Positions 32,781-54,645 of a stretch of 64,000 bases of DNA are shown here, piece after piece. Source of the DNA: an uncultured Bacteroidales bacterium (GTDB taxonomy: Bacteria; Bacteroidota; Bacteroidia; Bacteroidales; WCHB1-69); assembly GCA_934699095.1 (NCBI GenBank), contig CAKUVI010000003.1:67785-131784 (forward strand), given 5' to 3'. How positions within the stretch are numbered: the stretch's first letter is position 1; the number at the start of each line of letters is the position of its first letter. The notes under the pieces were generated by a model. The model saw nothing but the letters and a program-made list of their open reading frames with translations. It was not told the origin of the DNA and searched no databases. Made by a program: the position numbers and the translations under genes.

Positions 32781-33581
32781 ATGCGCATGGCCGAGCGCGG
32801 CTTTGTGGCGTTGGCTTTCGACCCGTCATATACCGGCGAGAGCAGCGGTGAACCACGTCGCACCGCCTCGCCCGACATCAACACCGAAGACTTCCTTGCC
32901 GCCGTTGATTTCCTGTCGAGGTTGGAGAACGTCGATCCGGAGCGCATCGGCATCATCGGCATCTGTGGTTGGGGCGGCATCGCGTTGAACGCCGCCGCTG
33001 CCGACCCGCGTCTCAAGGCCACCGTGGCCAGCACCATGTACGACATTACCCGCATCAGCGGCAACGGCTACTACGACAGCGACAACAACGAGGAGGCCCG
33101 CCACGCCGCCCGCGAGGCAATGGGCAAACAGCGTCTCGCCGACCCGATGGCCATGGCCGGCGGTGTCATCGACTCGGTACCCGACGATGCCCCGCAGTTC
33201 GTGAAGGACTATCACGCCTACTACAAGACCCCGCGCGGCTACCACAAACGTAGCGGCAACAGCAACGACGGCTGGCGCACAATCGGCACGCAGGCCTTTG
33301 CTAACAGCCGTTTCCTCTACTATATCAATGAGATCCGCTCCGCCGTCCTCGTGATGCACGGCGAAAAGGCCCACAGCCGCTACTTCGGCGAGGCCGCCTA
33401 CCACTACATGGTGGATGGCAAGGCCGAGGGTTACAATTTCATCGGCAAGCCGAATCCCAACCCCGACAACAAACAGCTGCTCATCATCCCCGGCGCCACC
33501 CACTGCGACCTCTACGACGGCGGAGAAGGCAACTACATCCCTTGGGATAAGTTGGCGGAGTTTTTCGGGAAGAATCTTTAG
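32781..33581 (+). CDS. Alpha/beta (dienelactone-hydrolase-like) hydrolase, apparently 5'-truncated by an internal deletion and possibly a pseudogene
   Basis: RGFVALAFDPSYTGESSGEP and GICGWGG (GxCxG nucleophile elbow). A signal-like MKKLILIAAAAS start at 32740 is in another frame. The hydrolase frame is open back to 32724 without a start codon. GC content jumps at about 32760. Confidence 0.65.
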   Translation: MRMAERGFVALAFDPSYTGESSGEPRRTASPDINTEDFLAAVDFLSRLENVDPERIGIIGICGWGGIALNAAAADPRLKATVASTMYDITRISGNGYYDSDNNEEARHAAREAMGKQRLADPMAMAGGVIDSVPDDAPQFVKDYHAYYKTPRGYHKRSGNSNDGWRTIGTQAFANSRFLYYINEIRSAVLVMHGEKAHSRYFGEAAYHYMVDGKAEGYNFIGKPNPNPDNKQLLIIPGATHCDLYDGGEGNYIPWDKLAEFFGKNL

Positions 33582-33616
33582 TTCTGTGAAATGTTAGAAC
33601 AAGAAAAAAATAGTTA

Positions 33617-33649
33617 AACCAAGGCTCTGAAATAGGCCTTGGTTTTTTT
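33617..33649 (+). terminator. Rho-independent terminator
   Basis: AACCAAGGC...GCCTTGGTT stem followed by a T run. Confidence 0.7.
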
Positions 33650-33713
33650 ATGTTGTTGGAATAGATATGATGAATGATTTGAGAAAGTTGTATCTTTGCA
33701 ACGATTACCTTCT

Positions 33714-34268
33714 ATGAAAGAAGAACCACAAAATTCTCAGTCCGAAACATATCCGCAGTATGTCAGGGTTATCCGACGGAGTCAACGGAAATACTCTGTG
33801 GTGGCCCGTTTTTATCTTCGCATAGTGTGGCTCTTTTCAGTACTCTTTTTGATGGAGACAGCCATCTTTCTTATCAGCGGCCCCTTGCATTTTCTTATTG
33901 AGAATCTGCTTTTTGTCTTCATCTTCGCTATTTCCTTTGCATTGTTCATTTCTTTTGTGTCGAAAGGGAGTTTGGTGGAATCCGTCTATGTGGATTACAA
34001 GAAAATGGAAATCAGGGTTTTGCGTTATGACATAATGAAACGTCCCATCAAGGATGTGATTTCGTTCGAGGGATTCTCGTGGGATGTTTTGAATGGTGGG
34101 CGAGGTCCTGACCGCCTGAGGATGTTCCGTCCCGACGGGAAACGGATTGTAGTTTGCGAAGGGGTATTGGGCTGGACTTTCGACGATTTTCTGCATCTAC
34201 GGTCAGCGTTGTCGAAGGTTGCGGAACAGAGCGACTGGTGGGAGAAGGGGCTTTGGACAAAACATTAA
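33714..34268 (+). CDS. Hypothetical membrane protein
   Basis: Two central TM segments. A TATCTTTG -7 box at 33691-33698 argues for the ATG at 33714. Confidence 0.5.
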   Translation: MKEEPQNSQSETYPQYVRVIRRSQRKYSVVARFYLRIVWLFSVLFLMETAIFLISGPLHFLIENLLFVFIFAISFALFISFVSKGSLVESVYVDYKKMEIRVLRYDIMKRPIKDVISFEGFSWDVLNGGRGPDRLRMFRPDGKRIVVCEGVLGWTFDDFLHLRSALSKVAEQSDWWEKGLWTKH

Positions 34269-34285
34269 AAATTTAACCGTAATTC

Positions 34286-34999
34286 ATGAACTCATTTGTA
34301 GAATATTTCAAGAATATCCAAGAGAGCAACGGCGATATAGGTTGTATTCACTCTTGCCCTGAATTGATAGATTGTGTCAGGCATACAGGCTTCCTGCCGC
34401 TGTTGGAGAGCGGTATTAGGGGCTATGCAGCGGAGAGCCTGATGGCCGAGGAGTGCCGTTTCACACAGTTTGACGACGGCTCATGGGAATGGCCGCTCTG
34501 GCAGTGGAAAGGGTCGGTGGTGCGCGATGGCAACTGCCTGTATGGAAAGTTCTTCGCAGGAAAAGCTGGTTTCATCAGTCGCGAGTGGTGGCCTGATTTC
34601 TGCAACTGGCGCCGCAGTAAGAATCCTGAGCCAGAGGAGTTCAGCATCGAGGGTATCATCTTGGCCACATTGCGCGATCACGGCAGTATGATAGCCCGCG
34701 ACCTTCGTGCTGCGTGCGACCTCACAGGAAAGAACATGCGTTCAAAGTTCGATGCTTACGTGGGACGGCTGCAAATGGCGACTTATATAGTGACCGAGGA
34801 CTTTGTCTATCCAGTTGACAAACACGGCCGGAAATACGGTTTCGGATGGTCATTGCTCACCACACCTGAACGCTTGTTAGGCAAGGAGGCCTGTCTGTGC
34901 GACCGGGCACCAGATGAGTCGTATAGGCGCATGGTGGAGCATCTTTCGCGGCTGTTGCCTGTCGCCACAGAAAAACAGATCAAAAAGTTGTTGAAATGA
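34286..34999 (+). CDS. Hypothetical protein, possibly an AlkZ-related/winged-helix DNA-repair-associated protein
   Basis: A 237-aa ORF with coding-like composition. Family assignment rests on memory only. Confidence 0.5.
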   Translation: MNSFVEYFKNIQESNGDIGCIHSCPELIDCVRHTGFLPLLESGIRGYAAESLMAEECRFTQFDDGSWEWPLWQWKGSVVRDGNCLYGKFFAGKAGFISREWWPDFCNWRRSKNPEPEEFSIEGIILATLRDHGSMIARDLRAACDLTGKNMRSKFDAYVGRLQMATYIVTEDFVYPVDKHGRKYGFGWSLLTTPERLLGKEACLCDRAPDESYRRMVEHLSRLLPVATEKQIKKLLK

Positions 35000-35181
35000 C
35001 GAGGTAGGAACGGGCAAACACAACACCACCTCATCGCAACGCCACTGCCACTTTAAATGATTCCAGAAAGCCATCGCGCTCGGCTTCGATGTGCTCGACG
35101 AAGTCCCACCATTCCTGCACACCGTCGGCGTACCTTTTGAGCTAACGTTTTTTGTATCTTTGCCGTTCAAAACATAATGCA

Positions 35182-36090
35182 ATGTCAATTACCGTTAAAG
35201 AGATCGAAGTAAAGTCGGTGGTCACCAAGACCAACCTGCCAGTGACCGACTACGCCGTGAACCCGTACGTGGGCTGTTTGCACGCTTGCAAGTATTGCTA
35301 CGCCTCGTTCATGAAGCGTTTCACCAACCATCCGGAGCCGTGGGGCGAGTTCCTCGACGTGAAAAACTGGCCTGACATTCACAATCGCGGGCAATACGCC
35401 GGCAAGGAGGCCTTCTTCTGCTCCGTGACCGACCCATACCAGCCGCATGAGGCCAAGTTCCAGCGGACGCGGAAAGTGCTGGAGCAGCTGCAAGGCACGG
35501 GCATCCGGCTCAGCATCTCCACCAAAAGCGACCTCATCCTCCGCGACCTCGACCTCATCAAGTCGTTTCCGGGCTCACGCGTATCGTGGAGCATCAACAC
35601 CTTGGACGAAGACTTCCGCAAGGAGATGGACCGCGCGGTCAGCATCGAGCGGCGCTTGGAGGCCATGCGGCAGTTCTACGAGGCCGGCATCAACACCACC
35701 TGCTTCATCTCCCCTATTTTCCCCGGCATCACCGACGTGGAGGCCATCATCGAAAGGGCAAAAAAACAATGCAACCTCGTATGGTTGGAGAATCTGAACC
35801 TGCGCGGCGACTACAAAGGGCACATCCTGCAATGGGTGCATGAGCACCATCCCGAGTTGGACGGCCTTTACCGCGACATCTACACCAAGAAAGACCGCAC
35901 CTATTGGAGCGAACTCGACACCGACTTGCGCCGATTCTGTGCTGAGAAGGGGTTCTTATACGTCCGCAACGACGACACAGTGCGCGCCAAGCACGGCGAA
36001 TCGCCCGTGGTGGTGAACTATTTCTACCACGAGGAAATCGTCCCCTCGGCCCGCAAGGAGCAGTTGCGGAAGACGCGGACGTGCTGCTGA
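35182..36090 (+). CDS. Radical SAM protein (SplB/DNA-photolyase-like COG1533 type)
   Basis: CxxxCxxC motif in GCLHACKYCYASF. Confidence 0.8.
   Translation: MSITVKEIEVKSVVTKTNLPVTDYAVNPYVGCLHACKYCYASFMKRFTNHPEPWGEFLDVKNWPDIHNRGQYAGKEAFFCSVTDPYQPHEAKFQRTRKVLEQLQGTGIRLSISTKSDLILRDLDLIKSFPGSRVSWSINTLDEDFRKEMDRAVSIERRLEAMRQFYEAGINTTCFISPIFPGITDVEAIIERAKKQCNLVWLENLNLRGDYKGHILQWVHEHHPELDGLYRDIYTKKDRTYWSELDTDLRRFCAEKGFLYVRNDDTVRAKHGESPVVVNYFYHEEIVPSARKEQLRKTRTCC
36057..36090 (+). repeat. Left copy of a 34-bp direct repeat (the 3' end of the radical SAM gene)
   Basis: GGAGCAGTTGCGGAAGACGCGGACGTGCTGCTGA recurs at 41596-41629 with 2 mismatches. Confidence 0.85.
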
Positions 36091-36101
36091 CTCCGTGTCG
36101 T

Positions 36102-36175
36102 TTAGCCTTCGCTGTTAATTAGCCTTCGGCTGTTAATTACTTCGTGTTAACATAAAATAACCAACACGAAGTAAC
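36102..36175. repeat. GTTAAC-hairpin intergenic repeat, copy a
   Basis: TTAGCCTTCG-CTGTTAATTAGCCTTCGGCTGTTAAT, then the hairpin TACTTCGTGTT-(14 nt)-AACACGAAGTA at 36138-36173. Confidence 0.8.
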
Positions 36176-36239
36176 CAGGTGCCGCCATAATTCCGAGAAA
36201 TATTGTACTTTTGTCAACAAATTTGAAAAACCACAAAAT

Positions 36240-36809
36240 ATGGATAACAGAAGCATTTTTGAACGCGACTATGCCGGCGAGCCGGTATCACCCAACGAGC
36301 CGGACTATCAGCTGCTGATAGCCGACATCGAGGATTGCATGGCGAAAGCCAGTGAACTGAACACAGGACGCTTCTCGTTTGCTGAAGCCCGCGAACGTTT
36401 CGGCGAGATTATCGGCCAGGAGATTGATGACAGCTGCCTGATCATGCCGCCTGTCTATATAGACTACGGCAAACACGTCAAGATCGGCAAGGGCTGCGTC
36501 ATCCAGCAGTGCTGCACGTTTTTCGGACGGTGTGGCATCGAACTGGGCAACGGGGTGTTCGTGGGACCGAAGGTGAACCTCATCACCATCAACCACGACC
36601 CCAATCCGGAGAACCGATCCACGACCTACGGCAAGAAAATCGTCATCGAGGACAACGTGTGGATTGGCATCGCGGCCACCATCCTGCCGGGCGTGCACCT
36701 CGGCTACGGCTGCATCGTCGGAGCCAATGCCGTGGTGACGAGGGACGTTCCTCCGTACGCCATAGTTGCCGGTAATCCCGCAAAAATCATCAAATATATT
36801 GAGCATTAG
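36240..36809 (+). CDS. Maltose O-acetyltransferase-like hexapeptide acetyltransferase
   Basis: NVWIGIAATILPGVHLGYGCIVGANAVVTRDVPPYAIVAGNPAKII. Confidence 0.8.
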   Translation: MDNRSIFERDYAGEPVSPNEPDYQLLIADIEDCMAKASELNTGRFSFAEARERFGEIIGQEIDDSCLIMPPVYIDYGKHVKIGKGCVIQQCCTFFGRCGIELGNGVFVGPKVNLITINHDPNPENRSTTYGKKIVIEDNVWIGIAATILPGVHLGYGCIVGANAVVTRDVPPYAIVAGNPAKIIKYIEH

Positions 36810-36860
36810 TCAGGATTGTGTATATTCTGTACATGAAAAAGAATGGACAAACCGGAATTT

Positions 36861-37658
36861 ATGCATAACGGGAACAACTATGTCACCATGCTCGGTACTG
36901 GCAATGCTCTGGCTACCCGATGCTACAACACTTGCTTCACGCTTCATGGCAAATAGAGTGTATTGCTTGTCGATGCTGGTGGCGGCAATGGTATCCTTGC
37001 CCAGCTTGAAAAGGCCGGAATACGTCGTGAGCTCATCAGCGACCTTTTCGTCATCCATGCCCATACTGACCATCTGTTGGGCTGCATCTGGATGATGCAC
37101 ATGACACTCCAGTTCAGATACCCTCTTCGTGTATGGAGCCATCATAAGGTGCTACAACTGCTGACAGACATTTGCCGCCAGATTCTCCCTTCTGAAGAAG
37201 CTGTTGGCATCGGAAATCTAGTTACGATGAATTGTATTAGCGATGGCGAACGTTTCGAGGCTGGAGAATTTGCCATGCAATGCTTTGATATTCATTCTAC
37301 AAAGGAGCGTCAGTTTGGATTTTCAACCAGGTTGTCGGATGGGCAACTTTTGTGTTGTCTGGGAGATGAGCCTTTTAATCCTCAGTGCCGCCAATATGAC
37401 GAGGGTGCCGACTGGCTGATGAGTGAGGCCTTTTGCCTGTATGAAGACCGCGAACGGTTCCAACCCTACCAAAAGCACCACAGCACCGTGCTCGATGCCG
37501 CCCGTTTGGCAGAGCGACTCGGAGTGAAGAATCTAATCCTTTATCACACGGAGGACCGAACACTGGACACTCGTAAAAGCAAGTACACAGCCGAGGCTGA
37601 GACGCAATATAGTGGTCGCGTCTGGGTACCGGACGATTTGGGAAAGATAATGTTGTAA
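36861..37658 (+). pseudogene. MBL-fold hydrolase gene interrupted by an in-frame TAG at 36954-36956
   Basis: MHNGNNYVTMLGTGNALATRCYNTCFTLHGK-stop-SVLLVDAGGGNGIL...HAHTDHLLG reads as one continuous MBL N-terminus in a single frame. Confidence 0.6.
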
Positions 37659-37842
37659 ATTTCAATGTAGCAAACAATAAACAAATAACCAAATCGACTG
37701 CTACGGGAAGTCCATCGAGTAATCAAATCCGACACGCTTAATGATACTGAAGAAACTTAAACTCAAGTACGCAGCCATCTTTTCCCTCTACAAATTAACA
37801 GAATAGCACATTCCTATTTCAAAATAATGCTATTTTTGCGGA

Positions 37843-40800
37843 ATGAAAACTGAGAAACTATTAGCAGCGGCCGCTGCCGCTTTTGCCGAAAGATGGCAAG
37901 AAAAAGGATATGAGAGAGGCGAGTCCCAGCTGTTTTGGGCCGACTTGCTGACCAACGTGTATGGCGTGGAGGACCTGCCCTCTTTCATCCGCTACGAGGA
38001 GCGGGTGAGCAGCATGGTGGATTCCACCAACTTCATCGATGGGCACATTCCCTCGACAAGAGTGCTCATCGAGCAGAAATCCTTGGGCAAAGACCTGCGG
38101 GCTCCCGTCACGCAGAGCGACGGCGGCAAACTCACCCCTTTCCAGCAGGCGAAAAAATACGTGGCCAACATGCCCCTTTCGCAGCACCCCAAGTGGATCG
38201 TGACCTGCAACTTCGAGGAGTTCCTCGTCTATGACATGGAACGGCCGAACGGGGAGCCCGAACAGATTCTGCTGAAAAATTTGGGCAAAGAGTTCTTCCG
38301 TCTCCGGTTTTTAGTCGATAGCAGAAGCGAACATCTTGCGAAAGAACTGCAGGTCTCGATGAAGGCCGGCGAGATTGTGGGCAAAATGTACGATGCCCTG
38401 TTAGAGCGATACGACGACAATTCGCCCGAGGCCCTGCGCTGGCTCAACATCCTGTGTGTGCGCCTCGTTTTCTGCATGTACGCCGAGGATGCCGCCGTGT
38501 TCCGGCATGACCAGTTCCACGACTTCCTGAATGGATGCAGTGCCGAAGACCTGAACGAGGCCCTGCAGAAGCTCTTCAGTGTGCTCAACACGCCGTTGGA
38601 GAAACGCAGCAAATACCTGAAAGACGACCTGAAGGCGTTTCCTTACACCAACGGCGGCTTGTTCGAGGAGGAGATTGAGATTCCGATTTTCACGGAGGAG
38701 CTGAAGCAGACGCTGCTGCAGAACGCGAGCCTCGACTTCGACTGGAGCGAGATTTCGCCCACCATCTTCGGGGCCGTTTTCGAAAGCACGCTGAATCCCG
38801 TGACCCGGCGCAGCGGAGGCATGCACTACACCTCGATAGAGAATATCCACAAGGTGATAGACCCTCTTTTCTTGAATGATCTGCGCGATGAACTTGACGA
38901 AATCCTGACCGAGAAGACTGAAAAACAACGTGTTAAAAAACTGGAAGCGTATCAGGAAAAGCTGGCGTCGCTGACATTTCTCGACCCTGCCTGCGGCTCT
39001 GGAAATTTTCTCACGGAGACCTACCTTTCGCTAAGAAGGTTGGAGAATGAGGCCCTGCGCGAGCGTTATCACGGGCAAATGATGATGGGGGCGTTTATGA
39101 ACCCCGTCAAGGTGAGCATCCACCAGTTCTACGGAATCGAGATCAACGATTTCGCCGTCACAGTGGCCACCACCGCGCTTTGGATTTCCGAGGCGCAGAT
39201 GCTGGCGGAGACGGAGCGCATCATCCAGCACGACATCGACTTTCTGCCTCTGAAGAGCTATGCCAACATCAAGGAGGGAAATGCATTGCGGGTGGACTGG
39301 AACAGCATAGGAGCCGACGCTTCCAGCGTCGCTAAAGGAGGCAACGCTTCCAGCGTTGCAGAATACAGAACTGACACTACCAGCGCTGTAAAAGAAGGAA
39401 CAAGCGATTCTGTCGCCCTTGGGAATGGGGCTGAGAATGTCATGCTGGGAAGCAAGTCTGAGAATGTCACGCTTGGAAGCAAGTCTGAGAATGTCACGCT
39501 TGGAAGCAAGTCTGAGAATGTCACGCTTGGAAGCGTGACCTCCTTGCATTTCATGGAACGGAAAGCTTACATCCAAATAACAGGGACAAAGCTTCCGCAC
39601 TGGCATCAAGAAAATAAAGTTCAGTTTGTTACATTTCGACTTGCCGATTCATTACCTCAATCCAAGTTAGCCGAGCTTTCGGAATTCAAAGAAGAGTGGA
39701 TATCCAAGCATCCAGAACCTTGGGACCGCAAGACCGAGGAAGAATACAACCATATCATACGCAAACGTGTCGATAAATGGCTTGACCAAAACTACGGTTC
39801 TTGCTTGCTTCAAAGGGCAGACTTAAGAAAAATAGTTGTTGATGCTCTGCTCTTTTATCACGGAAAGCGCTATTGGTTACATCATTTTGTCATCATGCCC
39901 AATCATGTCCATCTGTTGCTTTCACCCATAGGTGAAGAAACTGTAGGGAAAGCATTAGGTAGTGTTAAACAATTTACGTCCAACGCCATCAACAAGGCAA
40001 TTGGAGCCAAAGGGTCGGTTTGGCAGCGTGAAGTTTTTGACAGAATGGTGCGCGATGCCGACAACTACGAGGCATACGTGGCCTATATCAACAACAATCC
40101 GGCAAATCTGCCTCAAGGTTCATTTACCATAGGAGGCGACGCTGGAAGCGTCGCTAAAGGAGGCAACGCTTCCAGCGTTGCAACAAAGGGAGCAAGTGAT
40201 TTTGTCACGCTTGGAAGCGAGCCTGATGACTCTGTCACGCTTGGAAGCGAGCCTGATGACTCTGTCACGCTTGGAAGCGTGACCTCCTATGACTACATCA
40301 TGGGTAACCCGCCGTTTGTGGGCTACACATTCCAAAGCAAGGAACAAAAGGATGACCTTGCAGCCATAATGAAAGGCTTTGGCAGCAATATCGACTATGT
40401 GGCCGGATGGTATCTCAAGGCCTCTCAATATATGCAGTCGAACCCTCAAACCCGGTGCGCTTTGGTGTCAACCAATTCCATCACACAAGGCGAACAAGTG
40501 TCGGCAATTTGGAAACCTTTGTTTGAAAAATTCGGCATACACTTTGATTTCGCCTACCGCACTTTCCGCTGGGACAGCGAAGCTGACATCAAGGCGCATG
40601 TGCATTGCGTGGTATTAGGTTTTTCCGTTGCACCAAATTCCAAGCCAAGGACTATTTATCTTCCCGAAGGACAGTCTATTCAGGTGTCCAATATCAATGG
40701 CTATTTGCTGGATGCGCCGGATGTGTTTATCGAGAATCGGAAGAAGCCTTTGTGCGATGTTCCAGAGATGGTAAAAGGAAGTCAGCCAACCGATGGTGGG

Positions 40801-41571
40801 AACCTGATTTTGTCCAAAGCCGAAATGGAAGATTTGGTCGGCAAGTATCCGCAAATTGAGCCTTACGTTCACCGCTATGTCGGATCCGATGAGTTCATCA
40901 ACAACAAATACCGTTATTGCCTATGGCTTGCCAACGCCAATCCTGCGGTTTTGCGTTCATGCCCGCCCGTAATGGAGCGGATTGAGCGGGTAAGGCAAAT
41001 GCGACTTTCAAGTCCGAAAGCTGCCACACAGAAATGGGCGGAGTTTCCAACGCTTTTCACCGAGAACCGGCAGCCCGAAAGCGACTACCTGCTTGTGCCC
41101 AGCGTCAGCTCGGAAAACAGAAGATATGTCCCCATCGGTTATATGAAGAAAGATGTGGTTGCCAGCAATCTTGCCTTTGTCGTACCCAATGCATCGCTTT
41201 ATCATTTTGGTGTGATTACTTCCAACGTCCACATGGCCTGGATGCGTGCCGTTTGCGGGAGGTTAAAGAGTGATTATAGATATAGCAACACCATCGTCTA
41301 TAACAACTTCCCGTGGCCGAATCCTACCGAAAAGCAAAAGGCAAAGATTGAGCAGACGGCCCAGGCCATACTCGATGTCCGGGCCAAATATCCGGACTGC
41401 TCGTTGGCCGACCTCTACGACGAGGCCGCCATGCCGCCCGAGTTGCGCAAAGCCCATCAGGAGAACGACAAAGCCTTGATGGTGGCCTACGGGTTCGATA
41501 TCAAGATGAGTGAAAGCGAGTGTGTGGCCGAACTGTTCCGAGTGTACACGCAGTTTACGGCTGAATCATGA
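37843..41571 (+). CDS. MmeI-family type IIL restriction-modification enzyme (nuclease plus N6-adenine methyltransferase plus TRD) carrying an in-frame RAYT insertion
   Basis: N-terminal D...EQK nuclease motif (NFIDGHIPSTRVLIEQKSLG), FLDPACGSGNFL (motif I), IMGNPPFVG (motif IV) and a long C-terminal TRD. Motifs I and IV are separated by the 39313-40287 insert. Confidence 0.85.
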   Translation: MKTEKLLAAAAAAFAERWQEKGYERGESQLFWADLLTNVYGVEDLPSFIRYEERVSSMVDSTNFIDGHIPSTRVLIEQKSLGKDLRAPVTQSDGGKLTPFQQAKKYVANMPLSQHPKWIVTCNFEEFLVYDMERPNGEPEQILLKNLGKEFFRLRFLVDSRSEHLAKELQVSMKAGEIVGKMYDALLERYDDNSPEALRWLNILCVRLVFCMYAEDAAVFRHDQFHDFLNGCSAEDLNEALQKLFSVLNTPLEKRSKYLKDDLKAFPYTNGGLFEEEIEIPIFTEELKQTLLQNASLDFDWSEISPTIFGAVFESTLNPVTRRSGGMHYTSIENIHKVIDPLFLNDLRDELDEILTEKTEKQRVKKLEAYQEKLASLTFLDPACGSGNFLTETYLSLRRLENEALRERYHGQMMMGAFMNPVKVSIHQFYGIEINDFAVTVATTALWISEAQMLAETERIIQHDIDFLPLKSYANIKEGNALRVDWNSIGADASSVAKGGNASSVAEYRTDTTSAVKEGTSDSVALGNGAENVMLGSKSENVTLGSKSENVTLGSKSENVTLGSVTSLHFMERKAYIQITGTKLPHWHQENKVQFVTFRLADSLPQSKLAELSEFKEEWISKHPEPWDRKTEEEYNHIIRKRVDKWLDQNYGSCLLQRADLRKIVVDALLFYHGKRYWLHHFVIMPNHVHLLLSPIGEETVGKALGSVKQFTSNAINKAIGAKGSVWQREVFDRMVRDADNYEAYVAYINNNPANLPQGSFTIGGDAGSVAKGGNASSVATKGASDFVTLGSEPDDSVTLGSEPDDSVTLGSVTSYDYIMGNPPFVGYTFQSKEQKDDLAAIMKGFGSNIDYVAGWYLKASQYMQSNPQTRCALVSTNSITQGEQVSAIWKPLFEKFGIHFDFAYRTFRWDSEADIKAHVHCVVLGFSVAPNSKPRTIYLPEGQSIQVSNINGYLLDAPDVFIENRKKPLCDVPEMVKGSQPTDGGNLILSKAEMEDLVGKYPQIEPYVHRYVGSDEFINNKYRYCLWLANANPAVLRSCPPVMERIERVRQMRLSSPKAATQKWAEFPTLFTENRQPESDYLLVPSVSSENRRYVPIGYMKKDVVASNLAFVVPNASLYHFGVITSNVHMAWMRAVCGRLKSDYRYSNTIVYNNFPWPNPTEKQKAKIEQTAQAILDVRAKYPDCSLADLYDEAAMPPELRKAHQENDKALMVAYGFDIKMSESECVAELFRVYTQFTAES
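39307..39543 (+). repeat. Left REP-like module flanking the RAYT core
   Basis: Hairpins GACGCT-TCC-AGCGTC (39316-39330) and CAACGCT-TCC-AGCGTTG (39342-39358). Three 27-nt tandem units lie at 39448-39528. Terminal hairpin GTCACGCTTGGAAGCGTGAC at 39520-39539. Confidence 0.85.
39553..40128 (+). mobile_element. REP-associated tyrosine transposase (RAYT, Y1/HUH, IS200-like) coding core with no stop codon of its own
   Basis: MERKAYIQITGTKLPHWHQENKVQFVTFRLADSLP, HUH in IMPNHVHLLL, WQREVFDRMVRD, and the Tyr motif NYEAYVAYINNNP. Confidence 0.8.
40129..40288 (+). repeat. Right REP-like module flanking the RAYT core
   Basis: A 54-nt direct repeat of 39307-39360, but with the first hairpin loop inverted (GACGCT-GGA-AGCGTC, 40138-40152). 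Two 30-nt tandem units lie at 40213-40272. The terminal 25 nt are identical to 39520-39544. Confidence 0.85.
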
Positions 41572-48100: not shown

Positions 48101-48181
48101 ATCGTGAAGTAGGCCTTGAAAGAAGAACTGCCGAAGACAAGGACGTGCCGCCAAACATCATATCAATTGACAACAGACAAT

Positions 48182-49018
48182 ATGGAATACAAAACGTTGA
48201 ACAATGGACTGAAGATGCCGATAGTCGGCCTTGGGGTCTATAACATCTCCGAAAAGGAGACGCAAAGGGTGGTGGAAGACGCCTTGTCGGTGGGCTACCG
48301 CAGCATCGACACGGCCGCCATGTACGAAAACGAGAAAGGCGTGGGCGACGCGGTTCGGGCTTGCGGCGTTCCCCGCGAGGAGCTGTTCGTCACCACCAAG
48401 ATCTGCGAGCCCTGCCATACGCGGGAGGAGACGCTGCGCACGGTTGACCGTTCCATGCGGCAGATCGGCCTGGACTATGTGGATCTGATGCTGCTCCACT
48501 GGCCTGTGGGGAACCCCGCCGTGATGTGGCAAACGCTCGAAGAACTCCACGCACAAGGCATGTTCAAGGCCATCGGGGTGTCGAACTTCTATCCCAACAC
48601 CTTCCCGATGATTGTGAAGGACGCCAAGGTCATGCCCGTCGTGAACCAATGCGAGGTCCATGTGCTCTACCAGCAGCGGAAAATGAGGGAATATCTGAAG
48701 CCTTACGGAGTGGCTATGGAGGCCTGGAGCCCGTTGGCGGAAGGGCGGAGCAGCATCTTCAAGAACGAGACGTTGGTAAGTATCGGCGAGAAATACGGCA
48801 AGACATCCGCCCAGGTTGCTTTGAAGTTCCTGGTCCAGAACGACATCATCATCATTCCCAAGACGACGCACAAGGAGAGGATGGTGGAGAACATCAGCCT
48901 CTTCGACTTCGCGCTGACAGACGGCGACCTCGCCGAGATCCGGCGGTTAGACACCGGCCGCAATGTGACCGGCTGGCCGTCGGATGCGCTTGTGTATGAG
49001 CCTGCGGTTGTTGGTTAG
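48182..49018 (+). CDS. Aldo/keto reductase (copy 1)
   Basis: MEYKTLNNGLKMPIVGLGVY, IDTAAMYENE, LLHWP, SNF. Confidence 0.85.
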   Translation: MEYKTLNNGLKMPIVGLGVYNISEKETQRVVEDALSVGYRSIDTAAMYENEKGVGDAVRACGVPREELFVTTKICEPCHTREETLRTVDRSMRQIGLDYVDLMLLHWPVGNPAVMWQTLEELHAQGMFKAIGVSNFYPNTFPMIVKDAKVMPVVNQCEVHVLYQQRKMREYLKPYGVAMEAWSPLAEGRSSIFKNETLVSIGEKYGKTSAQVALKFLVQNDIIIIPKTTHKERMVENISLFDFALTDGDLAEIRRLDTGRNVTGWPSDALVYEPAVVG

Positions 49019-49052
49019 CCTTCGTGTTAACATGAAATAACCAACACTAAAC
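49014..49052. repeat. GTTAAC-hairpin intergenic repeat, copy b (degenerate)
   Basis: GTTAGCCTTCGTGTTAACATGAAATAACCAACAC. Confidence 0.7.
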
Positions 49053-53412: not shown

Positions 53413-53808
53413 TATGAAGAAAGTAAAGATTACCGTCCTCAAAACGATGCTGAATGAGGACTTGGCAAAGGAATATGGCATCTGCGGACTGAAAGCGTGT
53501 CCGATGATGAAGGAAGGTGATGTGTTTTATTCCGACTATGCAAAGCCTGATGGTTTTTGTGACGAAGCATGGAAAGCCATCTATCAGTATGTGTTTGCAC
53601 TGGCTCATGGTGCAGACAAAGGACTGTTCTACTATGGCGATTGGATTAAAGAGCCCGGTGTGGCCGTTGTCAGTTGCAATGACGGCCTTCGTCCTGTGAT
53701 AATGAAACTTGAAGCAACAGATGAGGAAGCCAGGATGGATTATTCGCCAATAGAAAGATGATGAAAAATATGGAACACAAAATCCTGAACAATGGACTGA
53801 AGATGCCG
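53413..53808 (+). repeat. ~396-bp segmental duplication, copy 1 (copy 2 at 58973-59369)
   Basis: The encoded 115-aa proteins and the shadow ORFs are identical in both copies. The copies diverge after AATGGACT-GAAGATGCCG. Confidence 0.85.
53414..53761 (+). CDS. TIGR04076-family small protein (copy 1)
   Basis: 115 aa, with KACPMMKEGDVF...KPDGFCDEAWKAI. Confidence 0.7.
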   Translation: MKKVKITVLKTMLNEDLAKEYGICGLKACPMMKEGDVFYSDYAKPDGFCDEAWKAIYQYVFALAHGADKGLFYYGDWIKEPGVAVVSCNDGLRPVIMKLEATDEEARMDYSPIER

Positions 53809-54606
53809 ATGGTCGGCCTTGGGGTCTATAACATCCCCGAAAAAGAGACGCAAAGGGTGGTGGAAGACGCCTTGTCGGTGGGCTACCGCAGCATTGACAC
53901 GGCTGCCATGTACGAAAACGAGAAAGGCGTAGGCGACGCGGTTCGGGCTTGCAACGTTCCACGCGAAGAGCTGTTCGTCACCACCAAAATCTGCGAGCCC
54001 TGCTATACGCGGGAGGAGACGCTACGCACAGTTGACCAGTCCATGCGGCAGATCGGATTGGACTATGTGGATCTGATGCTACTCCACTGGCCCGTGGGAA
54101 ACCCCACCGTCATGTGGCACACGCTCGAAGAACTCTATGCGCAAGGCATGTTCAAGGCCATCGGAGTGTCGAACTTCTATCCCAACACCTTCCCGATGAT
54201 TGTGGAGGACGCCAAGGTCATGCCCGTCGTGAACCAATGCGAGGCCCATGTGCTCTACCAGCAGCGGAAAATGAGGGAATACCTGAAGCCTTACGATGTG
54301 GCTTTGGAGGCCTGGAGTCCGTTGGCAGAAGGCCGGAGCAGCATCTTCAAAGACAAGATTTTGATGAGTATAGGCGAAAAATACGGCAAGACTTCCGCCC
54401 AGATAGCCTTGAAATTCCTCGTCCAGAACGACATCATCATCATTCCCAAGACGACGCACAAGGAGAGGATGGTGGAGAACATCAGTCTCTTCGACTTCAC
54501 GCTGACAGACGGCGACCTCGCCGAAATACAGCGGTTGGACACCGGCCGGAATGTGACTGGCTGGCCGTCGGATGCGCTTATATATGAGCCTGCGGCTGTT
54601 GGTTAG
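53770..54606 (+). CDS. Aldo/keto reductase (copy 2, a close paralog of 48182-49018)
   Basis: Collinear with copy 1 and nearly identical to it. An alternative start lies at 53758. Confidence 0.85.
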   Translation: MEHKILNNGLKMPMVGLGVYNIPEKETQRVVEDALSVGYRSIDTAAMYENEKGVGDAVRACNVPREELFVTTKICEPCYTREETLRTVDQSMRQIGLDYVDLMLLHWPVGNPTVMWHTLEELYAQGMFKAIGVSNFYPNTFPMIVEDAKVMPVVNQCEAHVLYQQRKMREYLKPYDVALEAWSPLAEGRSSIFKDKILMSIGEKYGKTSAQIALKFLVQNDIIIIPKTTHKERMVENISLFDFTLTDGDLAEIQRLDTGRNVTGWPSDALIYEPAAVG

Positions 54607-54645
54607 CCTTCGTGTTAACACGAAGTAGCAAACACGAAGTAACAA
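54596..54645. repeat. GTTAAC-hairpin intergenic repeat, copy d
   Basis: A perfect 18-nt palindrome CTTCGTGTTAACACGAAG at 54608-54625, plus a second right arm AACACGAAGTA at 54631-54641. Confidence 0.8.

Follow-up and report, generated by a model that had tools for sequence, protein, structure and literature searches.

The stretch of DNA considered here, a window of 64,000 nucleotides from an uncultured Bacteroidales bacterium (contig CAKUVI010000003.1), carries at 37843-41571 a gene for a single-chain restriction-modification enzyme of the MmeI family, inside which a second enzyme gene lies in frame. The block at 39306-40291 is a REPtron, that is, a REP-associated tyrosine transposase (RAYT) gene bracketed by its cognate repetitive extragenic palindromic (REP) hairpins, which is probably read through in a permissive loop of the host enzyme, tolerated there as a REP/RAYT element and expressed. 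A polypeptide running from nuclease through methyltransferase N-lobe, REP, RAYT, REP and methyltransferase C-part to target recognition domain (TRD) had been proposed by the initial annotation, which was made from the letters alone; hidden Markov model searches, a match to a PDB sequence, the predicted fold and comparative evidence now support that order.

An interrupted MmeI-family enzyme and its transposase

The open reading frame (ORF) has no internal stop codon according to the ORF list, and the five MmeI domains of Pfam follow each other in family order on a single chain, all far over their cut-offs (MmeI_N 117, MmeI_hel 76.8, MmeI_Mtase 270.6, MmeI_TRD 272.9 and MmeI_C 79.6 bits). The family assignment first made from motifs is thereby confirmed, each of the quoted motifs being found in its place, and the catalytic set of nuclease D-x12-ExK, S-adenosylmethionine (SAM) motif I and GNPPF is complete. 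Enzymes of the MmeI type place N6-methyladenine (m6A) on one strand and cleave about 20 nt away. A segment of the host protein aligns with residues 285-592 of MmeI (PDB 5HR4) at 268 bits and E = 9.6e-79, the N-part taking up residues 285-468. The methyltransferase domain is not contiguous, however, since it is split in two by 325 aa between EGNALRVDWNS and YDYIMGNPPF.

Alignment to uninterrupted MmeI homologs fixes the insertion point in the loop before motif IV, where the insert takes the place of the nine-residue MmeI loop NDVLEAKKC (5HR4 residues ~468-476). The nearest uninterrupted homologs are proteins from metagenome-assembled genomes (MAGs) of Bacteroidales, with ~70-82% identity, and they span the interval from EGNALRxxW to xDYIMGNPPF either with 9 aa (the short form, VDWNEVVPAEKLDYIMGNPPF, in proteins of 917-930 aa) or with an unrelated segment of ~55-65 aa (the long form, in proteins of ~972 aa). 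A loop that takes two such forms among uninterrupted relatives is naturally permissive and hypervariable.

The claim that the centre of the insert encodes a full-size Y1/HUH transposase with an ATG of its own and no stop codon is upheld by sequence profiles, by alignment to a PDB sequence and by the predicted fold. Pfam places Y1_Tnp (PF01797) at aa 679-752 with 26.5 bits against a cut-off of 23. The sole PDB sequence matched by the RAYT core is 4ER8, the TnpA_REP of Escherichia coli, and in this alignment HMH stands opposite the HVH of NHVH and Y115 opposite the tyrosine of AYINNNP. An AlphaFold2 (AF2) model, for which MmeI and RAYT homologs were aligned jointly, gave predicted local distance difference test (pLDDT) scores of 82-97 for the RAYT domain, mostly 63-88 for the C-terminal part of the methyltransferase and below 50 for both REP-encoded flanks; a Foldseek search with this model returned MmeI 5HR4 first, then 4ER8 and the ISDra2, IS608 and IS200 TnpA. 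The motifs NHVH, WQ and YINNNP together form the signature set NH[IFV]H, WQ and YIxNNP of subclass 2.4, which also has an enlarged core (Quentin et al. 2018, Table 1, PMC6006769). This subclass, to which Group 4 of Bertels et al. 2017 is equivalent, is frequent among Bacteroidetes and Cyanobacteria and is already known to hold REPs in frame within the tnpA_REP gene itself (PMC6006769).

Two other kinds of mobile insert were considered and rejected. An IS200/IS605 insertion sequence does not fit, the model NF033573 scoring 17.7 bits against a cut-off of 55 and the tyrosine motif being YINNNP rather than Y-x3-Q; no second copy of the unit was found in the window. Inteins have a Hint splicing domain, with Cys, Ser or Thr at the N-junction and Asn followed by Cys, Ser or Thr at the C-junction, and here Pfam gave no Hint or intein match and the junctions (WNS/IGAD and VTS/YDY, slashes marking the boundaries) lack splice-junction residues.

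In codon terms the insert occupies 39313-40287 (975 nt, 325 codons), as first described, and the unit as defined by its repeats is 39306-40291 (986 nt), with the edges CATAGGAG... and ...CTCCTATG. Its G+C content is 0.43-0.47 across the RAYT core against ~0.50-0.57 in the surrounding gene. The REP-like hairpins that had been noticed on either side of the RAYT belong to duplicates of one module, which share a 55-nt direct repeat (39306-39360 and 40128-40182, 93% identity). Each module opens with CATAGGAG, continues with hairpin 1 (GACGCT-TCC/GGA-AGCGTC) and hairpin 2 (GCAACGCT-TCC-AGCGTTGC), set 27 nt apart, and closes with hairpin 3 (GTCACGCTT-GG-AAGCGTGAC) and then CTCC; hairpin 3 is preceded by tandem units, which are 27 nt long in the left module and 30 nt long in the right one. 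The outer ends of the whole unit are the inverted repeats CATAGGAGCCGACGCTTCCA and TGGAAGCGTGACCTCCTATG. Folded as single-stranded DNA (ssDNA), the right module makes one closed structure (z = -6.3 against shuffles) with the closing stem CATAGGAGG/CCTCCTATG, and the left module reaches z = -3.4. The hairpins stand far above shuffle expectation: pattern searches with both strands counted gave 7-8 occurrences, against 0.00-0.01 expected in shuffles of the window, and the matches in the window are confined to the insert, bar one with three mismatches.

Over 39306-40291 there are no stops in the host frame and 8-21 in each of the remaining five, in agreement with the stop-free flanks and in-phase junctions of the initial annotation. 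The flanks alone are open in three (left) and two (right) of the six frames, and their openness by itself is therefore weak evidence; a single REP unit (hairpin 1 with its 5' foot) appears, from its sequence, to be stop-free in all six. The copy number of the tandem units is uncertain, as one assembly that is otherwise 100% identical (L023) has a run of 100 N at the array, but all units are multiples of three and the frame is unaffected by this doubt. Scans for promoters and terminators found no + strand terminator within the gene and were uninformative for promoters, the sigma-70 consensus being ill-suited to Bacteroidales. Judged as a REPtron, the unit has the transposase bracketed by cognate REP hairpins, in the form of duplicated modules and terminal inverted repeats; it does not have the extragenic site or the separate gene with its own stop, as it lies within ORF 37843-41571.

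These features suggest how the arrangement may work. A RAYT of subclass 2.4 / Group 4, together with two REPIN-like modules, lies within the coding sequence for a hypervariable surface loop of the methyltransferase, in a form compatible with read-through: the modules are stop-free in the host frame, REP units and tandem units measure 27 or 30 nt, and the RAYT is without a stop and continues the host phase at either end. Translation of the host gene would then yield one fusion polypeptide of 1242 aa, with a folded RAYT carried by two linkers of ~80 and 53 aa that are low in complexity and probably disordered, these being the translated REP arrays, and the split methyltransferase would still be able to assemble around the dangling RAYT. 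Selection on the host gene would keep the frame open, and selection on the element, or its usefulness, would keep the RAYT. The latter, monomeric like the TnpA_REP of E. coli, would bind REP hairpins in ssDNA and cut and join them, by which REP copies could spread. By analogy, the RAYT may cut and join its own REPs as the E. coli enzyme does, cleavage and rejoining of REP hairpin ssDNA being known only for E. coli and a few other TnpA_REP (PMC3333891, PMC8266576), and the fusion would be made and both enzymes would work. Every RAYT-containing product also holds host sequence (1242 aa, or 672 aa if translation began at the RAYT ATG), and expression of the RAYT would thus depend on the host gene. 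The features of the gene and of its insert are collected in Table 1.

Table 1. Coordinates of the MmeI-family gene, its domains and its insert, given as window positions unless marked aa (slashes mark junctions)
Feature	Position	Strand	Basis
Whole ORF, MmeI-family single-chain restriction-modification enzyme with in-frame insert	37843..41571	+	ATG start, 1242 aa + stop, ORF list, Pfam
Host N-part: PD-(D/E)XK nuclease, helical spacer, methyltransferase N-lobe; ends EGNALRVDWNS	37843..39305	+	Pfam, motifs, 5HR4 alignment
MmeI_N	aa 10-189	+	Pfam
MmeI_hel	aa 201-274	+	Pfam
MmeI_Mtase	two stretches, second = aa 816-939	+	Pfam
Nuclease motif D...EQK (D-x12-ExK), FIDGHIPSTRVLIEQK	38032-38079	+	sequence
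SAM motif I FLDPACGSGNFL	38977-39012	+	sequence
EGNALRVDWNS	39274-39306	+	sequence
Host/insert junctions	WNS/IGAD and VTS/YDY	+	sequence
Junction-spanning peptides of the fusion ORF	...VDWNSIGADASSVAK... and ...LGSVTSYDYIMGNPPF...	+	sequence
Left REPIN-like module, foot CATAGGAG, translated IGADASSVAKGGNASSVA...(GSKSENVTL)n...GSVTS	39306..39545	+	repeats, pattern searches, ssDNA fold
Left-module hairpins	39314-39332, 39341-39359, 39520-39539	+	pattern searches
Left-module 27-nt tandem units	~39432-39542	+	repeat analysis
RAYT (TnpA_REP) core, 195 aa (aa 571-765), own ATG, stop codon absent	39553..40137	+	PF01797, NCBIfam, 4ER8, AF2/Foldseek
MERKAY, own ATG of the RAYT	39553	+	sequence
LPHWHQ	39592	+	sequence
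MPNHVHLLL, HUH motif NHVH	39895-39921	+	sequence
VWQREVFDRMVRD	40018-40056	+	sequence
WQ (VWQ)	40021-40026	+	sequence
YVAYINNNP	40075-40101	+	sequence
Catalytic Tyr of AYINNNP	40084-40086	+	sequence, 4ER8 alignment
Right REPIN-like module, end CCTCCTATG, inverted relative to left end	40128..40291	+	repeats, ssDNA fold
Right-module hairpins	40136-40154, 40163-40181, 40264-40283	+	pattern searches
Right-module 30-nt tandem units	40197-40286	+	repeat analysis
Host C-part, opens YDYIMGNPPF	40288..41571	+	Pfam, motifs, 5HR4 alignment
Motif IV NPPF	40306-40317	+	sequence
Remainder of methyltransferase domain	to 40659	+	Pfam
TRD	40711-41322	+	Pfam
MmeI_TRD	aa 957-1160	+	Pfam
MmeI C-terminal domain	41329-41562	+	Pfam
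MmeI_C	aa 1163-1240	+	Pfam
Second permissive site (site B), TRD/C-domain junction NNFPWP/NPTEKQKAK/IEQTAQ; empty in window	41320..41345	+	relatives

Alleles, relatives and dispersed REPs

The order of host N-part, insert and host C-part recurs in L001 (GCA_045225055.1; ~95-96% average nucleotide identity (ANI) to the window genome, background nucleotide identity ~92-98%), in L023, in five more cluster members and in the distant L002. The insert as such is present in more than eight independent assemblies. L023 is identical to the window except for its 100-N gap in the 27-nt array (L023 2878-2977, corresponding to about 39529/39530 of the window), and P0121 is the same as the window ORF when compared by eye. 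The cluster alleles of 1223, 1233, 1242 and 1250 aa are distinguished only by whole 9- or 10-aa units, and L001 has the same insert minus one 27-nt and two 30-nt units; all allele length differences are multiples of three. The protein P0385, which has 672 aa and starts at the RAYT ATG, was considered as a broken allele and rejected, a 100-N scaffold gap in the tandem array being responsible for the gene call; short-read assemblies are thus unreliable for unit counts at this place. No empty-site allele, in which precise excision would join ...GACTGGAAC... directly to ...TATGACTACATC..., was found in the ten members of two near-identical clusters, and the closest insert-free homologs are ~80% identical.

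Identity between the window and L001 amounts to 99.7% for the RAYT core, 88-96% for the host parts and 92-98% for the genomic background. Along the gene, which is mosaic in structure, identical tracts of 502, 333, 272 and 237 nt stand beside clusters of mismatches; the longest (39637-40138) lies inside the RAYT core, and divergence is highest in the first 150 nt after the insert (40299-40449). Such a mosaic makes a uniform-rate test (P about 1e-12) invalid, and the pattern, which fits recombination mosaicism, was rejected as evidence of recent transfer or homing of the RAYT.

A scan of a genome collection with the RAYT core as single protein query returned one locus, L002, from an uncultured Bacteroidales MAG, where an MmeI-family protein has a 71%-identical RAYT at the same codon position (...REGNALKMDW/LGGDVSHVAT...DVGHVVS-LQFMERDK...FSLGGDVSHVAT...DVGHVVS/YDYIIGNPPF). 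The two MmeI genes are ~79% identical in the N-part and 57% in the C-part. The REP stem reads GACGTG...CACGTC in L002 against GACGCT...AGCGTC in the window, and as both arms differ, the change is a compensating one and the REP stem co-varies with the RAYT. Codon comparison of the two loci gave proportions of nonsynonymous (pN) and synonymous (pS) differences of 0.197 and 0.85 for the RAYT core and of 0.143 and 0.68 for the host N-part, against 0.51 and 0.51 for the left flank and 0.47 and 0.48 for the right. Purifying selection acts on the RAYT as well as on the host protein, the ratio of nonsynonymous to synonymous rates (omega) being 0.06-0.2 for the host overall and, for its N-part, 0.06 against L001 and 0.09 against L002. 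The REP-encoded linkers, which are predicted to be disordered, are neutral as protein, with their hairpins and open frame retained.

Beyond these genes, a metagenome scan with hairpin 1 and the foot as query yielded 18 stretches (fewer distinct loci), among which there was no clear RAYT (E <= 1e-5) and no MmeI gene. A 54-nt (2 x 27) doublet lies in frame within an activase-like ORF of 1429 aa and one unit in frame within an ORF of the endonuclease/exonuclease/phosphatase (EEP) family; the other copies are at the 3' ends of ORFs or intergenic. The foot TA/GGAG(S)CGACGCT is common to most copies. Judged by their sequences and settings, the REPs are a real, mobile and coding-compatible family.

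The relatives also reveal a second permissive place in the MmeI gene, at the junction of TRD and C-terminal domain (site B, the loop before motif IV being site A). L001, P0122 and P0392 have an in-frame REP insert of 21 codons net at this junction, P0222 and P0416 have REP arrays and P0244 has a RAYT, and the REP insert is polymorphic between relatives, being present in L001, P0392 and P0222 and absent from the window. Identity between P0122 and P0222 is 97-100% over aa 1-480, ~98% (67/68) over aa 1166-1233 and only ~45-55% in the interval, a pattern which implies that a cassette from motif IV to the TRD has been exchanged, with breakpoints at the two REP/RAYT sites.

The surroundings of the gene differ between strains as well. 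In the window a radical-SAM gene (35152-36090) precedes the MmeI gene by ~1.7 kb, whereas in L001 (13749-14657, ~96% ANI) it follows that gene directly, and the ~4 kb at 33581-37782 correspond to 0.6 kb in L001, which places the MmeI gene in a rearranging patch. Just upstream of the MmeI ORF, a gene of the metallo-beta-lactamase fold (36963-37658) has a weak match to the Anti-Pycsar protein Apyc1, as precomputed for the identical locus L023. Farther away, the stretches 48177-49030 and 53761-54618 are paralogous and both match a single aldo/keto-reductase region of L001, with 95.6% and 91.6% identity, which indicates a local duplication in the window.

RAYT genes within other proteins

An exhaustive HMMER search with the RAYT core over 1.84 billion cluster representatives gave 7894 matches, 470 of them with E < 1e-30. 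Sorted by length, the best 150 of the 7894 comprise 51 representatives of at most 235 aa, 60 of 236-399 aa and 39, about a quarter, of at least 400 aa, in which the RAYT is mostly internal. Pfam scans of 30 long RAYT-containing proteins identified ten as restriction-modification proteins (nine Eco57I-, PglX- or MmeI-type methyltransferases and one HsdS). Leucyl-tRNA synthetase (LeuRS) is the host in three clusters and valyl-tRNA synthetase (ValRS) in one, and the scanned set further includes a DinG-like helicase, a Mur ligase, UxaC, HypF, AroE, PdxA, a B12-radical-SAM enzyme, a 2-hydroxyacid dehydrogenase, a protein with the type IV pilin N-methylation motif, a DUF3999 protein and an ADH-GFO fusion, with five proteins showing no additional domain. 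Outside these 30, RAYTs are embedded in Sua5/TsaC, Dtd, ClpB, Fic and WYL proteins. The Sua5/TsaC domain is found in two pieces, its gene belongs to a tightly overlapping operon, and a 124-nt module occurs there three times. NHVH is kept in all 38 long proteins checked and the Y...NP motif in 33, and ~60% of the 38 have identical peptides of 5-12 residues on either side of the RAYT, these being translated direct repeats. The initial annotation knew of no described restriction enzyme with a RAYT domain; we likewise found no description, but the case is not a one-off, since public data hold many restriction-modification and housekeeping hosts.

Further MmeI genes with a RAYT are found in the clusters P0415, P0416, P0417, P0418 and P0421. 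The RAYT takes the same loop site as in the window in P0415 and P0416, the TRD/C junction in P0244 and the position of the TRD itself in P0417 and P0418. P0247 has a REP array in the loop and a RAYT just after motif IV that is joined directly to the C-domain at site B, the remainder of the methyltransferase domain and the TRD being deleted. In P0417, P0418 and P0247 the sequence reads ...AHVHCVIxG/RAYT/IE(R/Q)TAQAILD, with the methyltransferase domain joined to the C-terminal domain via REP-RAYT-REP, and these three represent either decay after REP-mediated deletion or a novel architecture. In a rough neighbour-joining tree without support values, the loop-site RAYTs form a single clade in which stand-alone ones are interspersed, RAYTs at the junction site or in place of the TRD group in a clade far from it, and the PglX-like cases belong to further clades, which implies several independent colonisations; P0010 and P0004, close relatives of the RAYT, are stand-alone intergenic genes.

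Among the synthetases, the LeuRS proteins P0347, P0349 and P0363, which are less than 50% identical pairwise, have their RAYT at the same site after the editing domain (...KFxLxxxQVV/REP-RAYT-REP/...AVxSGFLDG...), and P0349 has an apparent frameshift downstream of the insert. The plain RAYTs P0005 and P0013 (214-277 aa) are labelled 'type I restriction enzyme R subunit' by JGI, a label that probably came from reference proteins with a RAYT in fusion with a restriction-modification subunit.

Alternative readings and known systems

The initial annotation had left three readings side by side, of which the tolerance of a REP/RAYT unit in a surface loop is the best supported: the loop is hypervariable, the linkers are neutral and predicted to be disordered, and the same REPs occur in unrelated genes. 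Several assemblies moreover have the ORF intact, the assignment to Y1/HUH stands and the insert is no common linker of the family. Several observations nevertheless weigh against tolerated read-through. Pattern searches found no further REP copy in the remaining ~63 kb of the window, which leaves REP activity in this genome unproven; REP copy number in the source genome seems low, and low copy number has been reported for Group 4. The top NCBIfam model, NF047646 (REP_Tyr_transpos), scores 55 bits (E = 7.7e-15), under its equivalog cut-off of 80, although the model appears to be tuned to other RAYT groups and its score then does not contradict the assignment. The N-lobe of the methyltransferase is poorly modelled by AF2 (pLDDT 30-45), and the position of the RAYT relative to the DNA and SAM sites is consequently not placed by the model. 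An insert of 325 aa directly before motif IV could impair the enzyme. The share of restriction-modification hosts is not obviously predicted by pure tolerance and leaves room for a functional link. Finally, fusion calls from metagenome assemblies may include chimeric joins at repeats, which would affect some of the other examples and not the window locus.

That functional link could be domestication, with the RAYT as a working part of restriction-modification or BREX-type methyltransferases that binds or nicks hairpins in invading ssDNA, or controls the enzyme, to the benefit of the host. We consider this unlikely. It would account for the ten restriction-modification proteins among the 30 scanned and for the additional MmeI clusters, for the colonisation of MmeI genes by at least two distant RAYT lineages and of PglX-like and Eco57I-like genes by others, for the shared codon position in MmeI genes as far apart as those of the window and L002 with a RAYT under purifying selection, and for the RAYTs that stand in the place of the TRD. 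The same RAYT clade, however, occurs in LeuRS, ValRS, Mur ligase, PdxA, AroE and Sua5, where a defence role makes no sense; insertion positions vary among restriction-modification genes, the insert is absent from most close MmeI homologs, the REP modules are retained although neutral as protein, and the nearest relatives of the RAYT are ordinary stand-alone REPtrons. Purifying selection on the RAYT would also be seen in an active selfish element. A different function is conceivable for the REP arrays, which could serve as portable, stop-free, in-frame homology at MmeI domain boundaries through which the motif IV-to-TRD cassette is swapped or lost, with the RAYT as engine or passenger. Inserts do recur at sites A and B, which bracket that cassette; the identity between P0122 and P0222 drops between the two sites, P0247 lacks its TRD and has a REP-RAYT joined directly to site B, P0417 and P0418 have a RAYT instead of a TRD, and the window and L001 diverge most strongly right behind the insert. 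Yet P0222 has no REP at the left breakpoint, the N- and C-terminal regions are conserved family-wide so that ordinary homologous recombination yields the same mosaic, the TRD-less derivatives may simply be decaying genes, and paired donor cassettes were not seen in the window. As the explanation of this locus, recombination joints are an attractive but improbable idea, which we rank just below domestication.

Neither excision nor decay accounts better for the locus. Y1 transposases of the IS200/IS605 family excise seamlessly, and the unit, with its terminal inverted repeats, subterminal hairpins and repeat numbers that vary from strain to strain, could be imagined to leave as ssDNA by the same peel-and-paste route and so to toggle the restriction-modification enzyme. 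The near-identical alleles argue against such a switch, which had been the third of the initial readings: an empty site is seen in none of ten, the one apparently broken allele is the scaffold-gap artefact P0385, both states would be in frame so that excision offers no obvious switching, and the 27- and 30-nt changes in copy number resemble slippage or assembly noise. An excisable switch is accordingly very improbable. Hardly credible at all is a gene killed by the transposon whose frame stayed open by luck, or a mis-assembly at the repeats. The flanks are open in several frames anyway, and repeats are hard to assemble, as the gap in L023 illustrates; but the same arrangement stands in the window, L001, L023, five cluster members and the distant L002, omega of the host and its intact catalytic motifs speak of a maintained enzyme, and the whole 986 nt are stop-free in the host frame only.

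Tolerated read-through thus remains the preferred reading, and the phenomenon to which it belongs is broad, reaches essential genes and is directly testable, which makes it of fairly high interest. The locus and the dozens of parallel cases place a full transposase gene within the frames of other proteins, essential ones included. Besides inteins and IStrons, this would be another way for the gene of a selfish enzyme to occupy a gene without killing it, through a stop-free design in multiples of three and disordered linkers, and read-through offers a simple account of how such RAYTs are expressed. A loop of an MmeI-type enzyme that accepts a 36-kDa insert would be useful for engineering, and cassette exchange mediated by REP arrays is a testable idea for restriction-modification biology. 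A wider proposal, which we think doubtful, is that an entire clade of RAYT/REP elements persists and moves in an intein-like, non-splicing, in-frame lifestyle with a marked preference for restriction-modification and BREX-type methyltransferases, its stop-free REP arrays at the two cassette boundaries of MmeI-family genes being joints that swap, delete or replace the TRD; if true, the element would shape the evolution of restriction specificity and not merely ride in the gene. In current annotation, proteins with a fused RAYT receive wrong labels or are dropped as fusion errors.

By definition REP/RAYT systems are extragenic, and the usual view of RAYTs is that of domesticated genes in single copy. 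The parts of the present arrangement are known, namely MmeI enzymes, RAYTs, REPINs and in-frame intragenic REPs including the Rickettsia palindromic elements; the embedding of a whole RAYT is provisionally new, as the literature searched, most subscription journals being outside its scope, yielded no account of an entire RAYT gene lying in frame within a host ORF. Ogata and colleagues are said to have described, in 2000, Rickettsia palindromic elements within protein-coding genes. Such elements and other in-frame intragenic REPs add 20-82 residues, presumably in tolerant loops, often in genes of DNA metabolism (PMC3733652). The survey of Quentin et al. 2018, the only one that must have encountered such proteins, excluded long sequences with a RAYT as 'gene fusions or annotation errors' (PMC6006769).

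Set beside MmeI (5HR4) and the Type IIL/IIG enzymes, the window ORF has the same five-domain order, D-x12-ExK, motif I and NPPF, and differs in the 325-aa interruption of the methyltransferase domain where MmeI has its 9-residue loop. With REPtrons and REPIN-RAYT systems (E. coli TnpA_REP 4ER8, subclass 2.4) the unit shares a Y1/HUH enzyme with NHVH, WQ and YIxNNP, and cognate palindromic REP modules with a conserved 5' foot, and its REPs recur elsewhere, here in a related strain and in metagenome sequences; described REPtrons, however, are extragenic and their RAYT is a gene of its own with a stop, whereas here the unit lies within a host frame and the stop-less RAYT could be made only as a fused product. 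The Rickettsia elements and intragenic REPs are of the same kind as the REP-only inserts of L001 site B, L005 and L006, but are non-autonomous and enzyme-free, while the window insert holds a transposase of 195 aa in a total of 325 codons. Inteins with homing endonucleases likewise keep a selfish DNA-cutting enzyme in frame in host proteins, including essential ones; they splice and sit in conserved active-site motifs, whereas the window insert has no Hint domain, is presumably never removed from the protein and lies in a variable loop. IS200/IS605 elements and IStrons, finally, resemble the unit in their Y1 HUH transposase, subterminal hairpins and ssDNA chemistry, and IStrons too are tolerated inside genes; the window unit differs from them in having no tnpB and in a tolerance that would come from read-through translation and not from RNA splicing.

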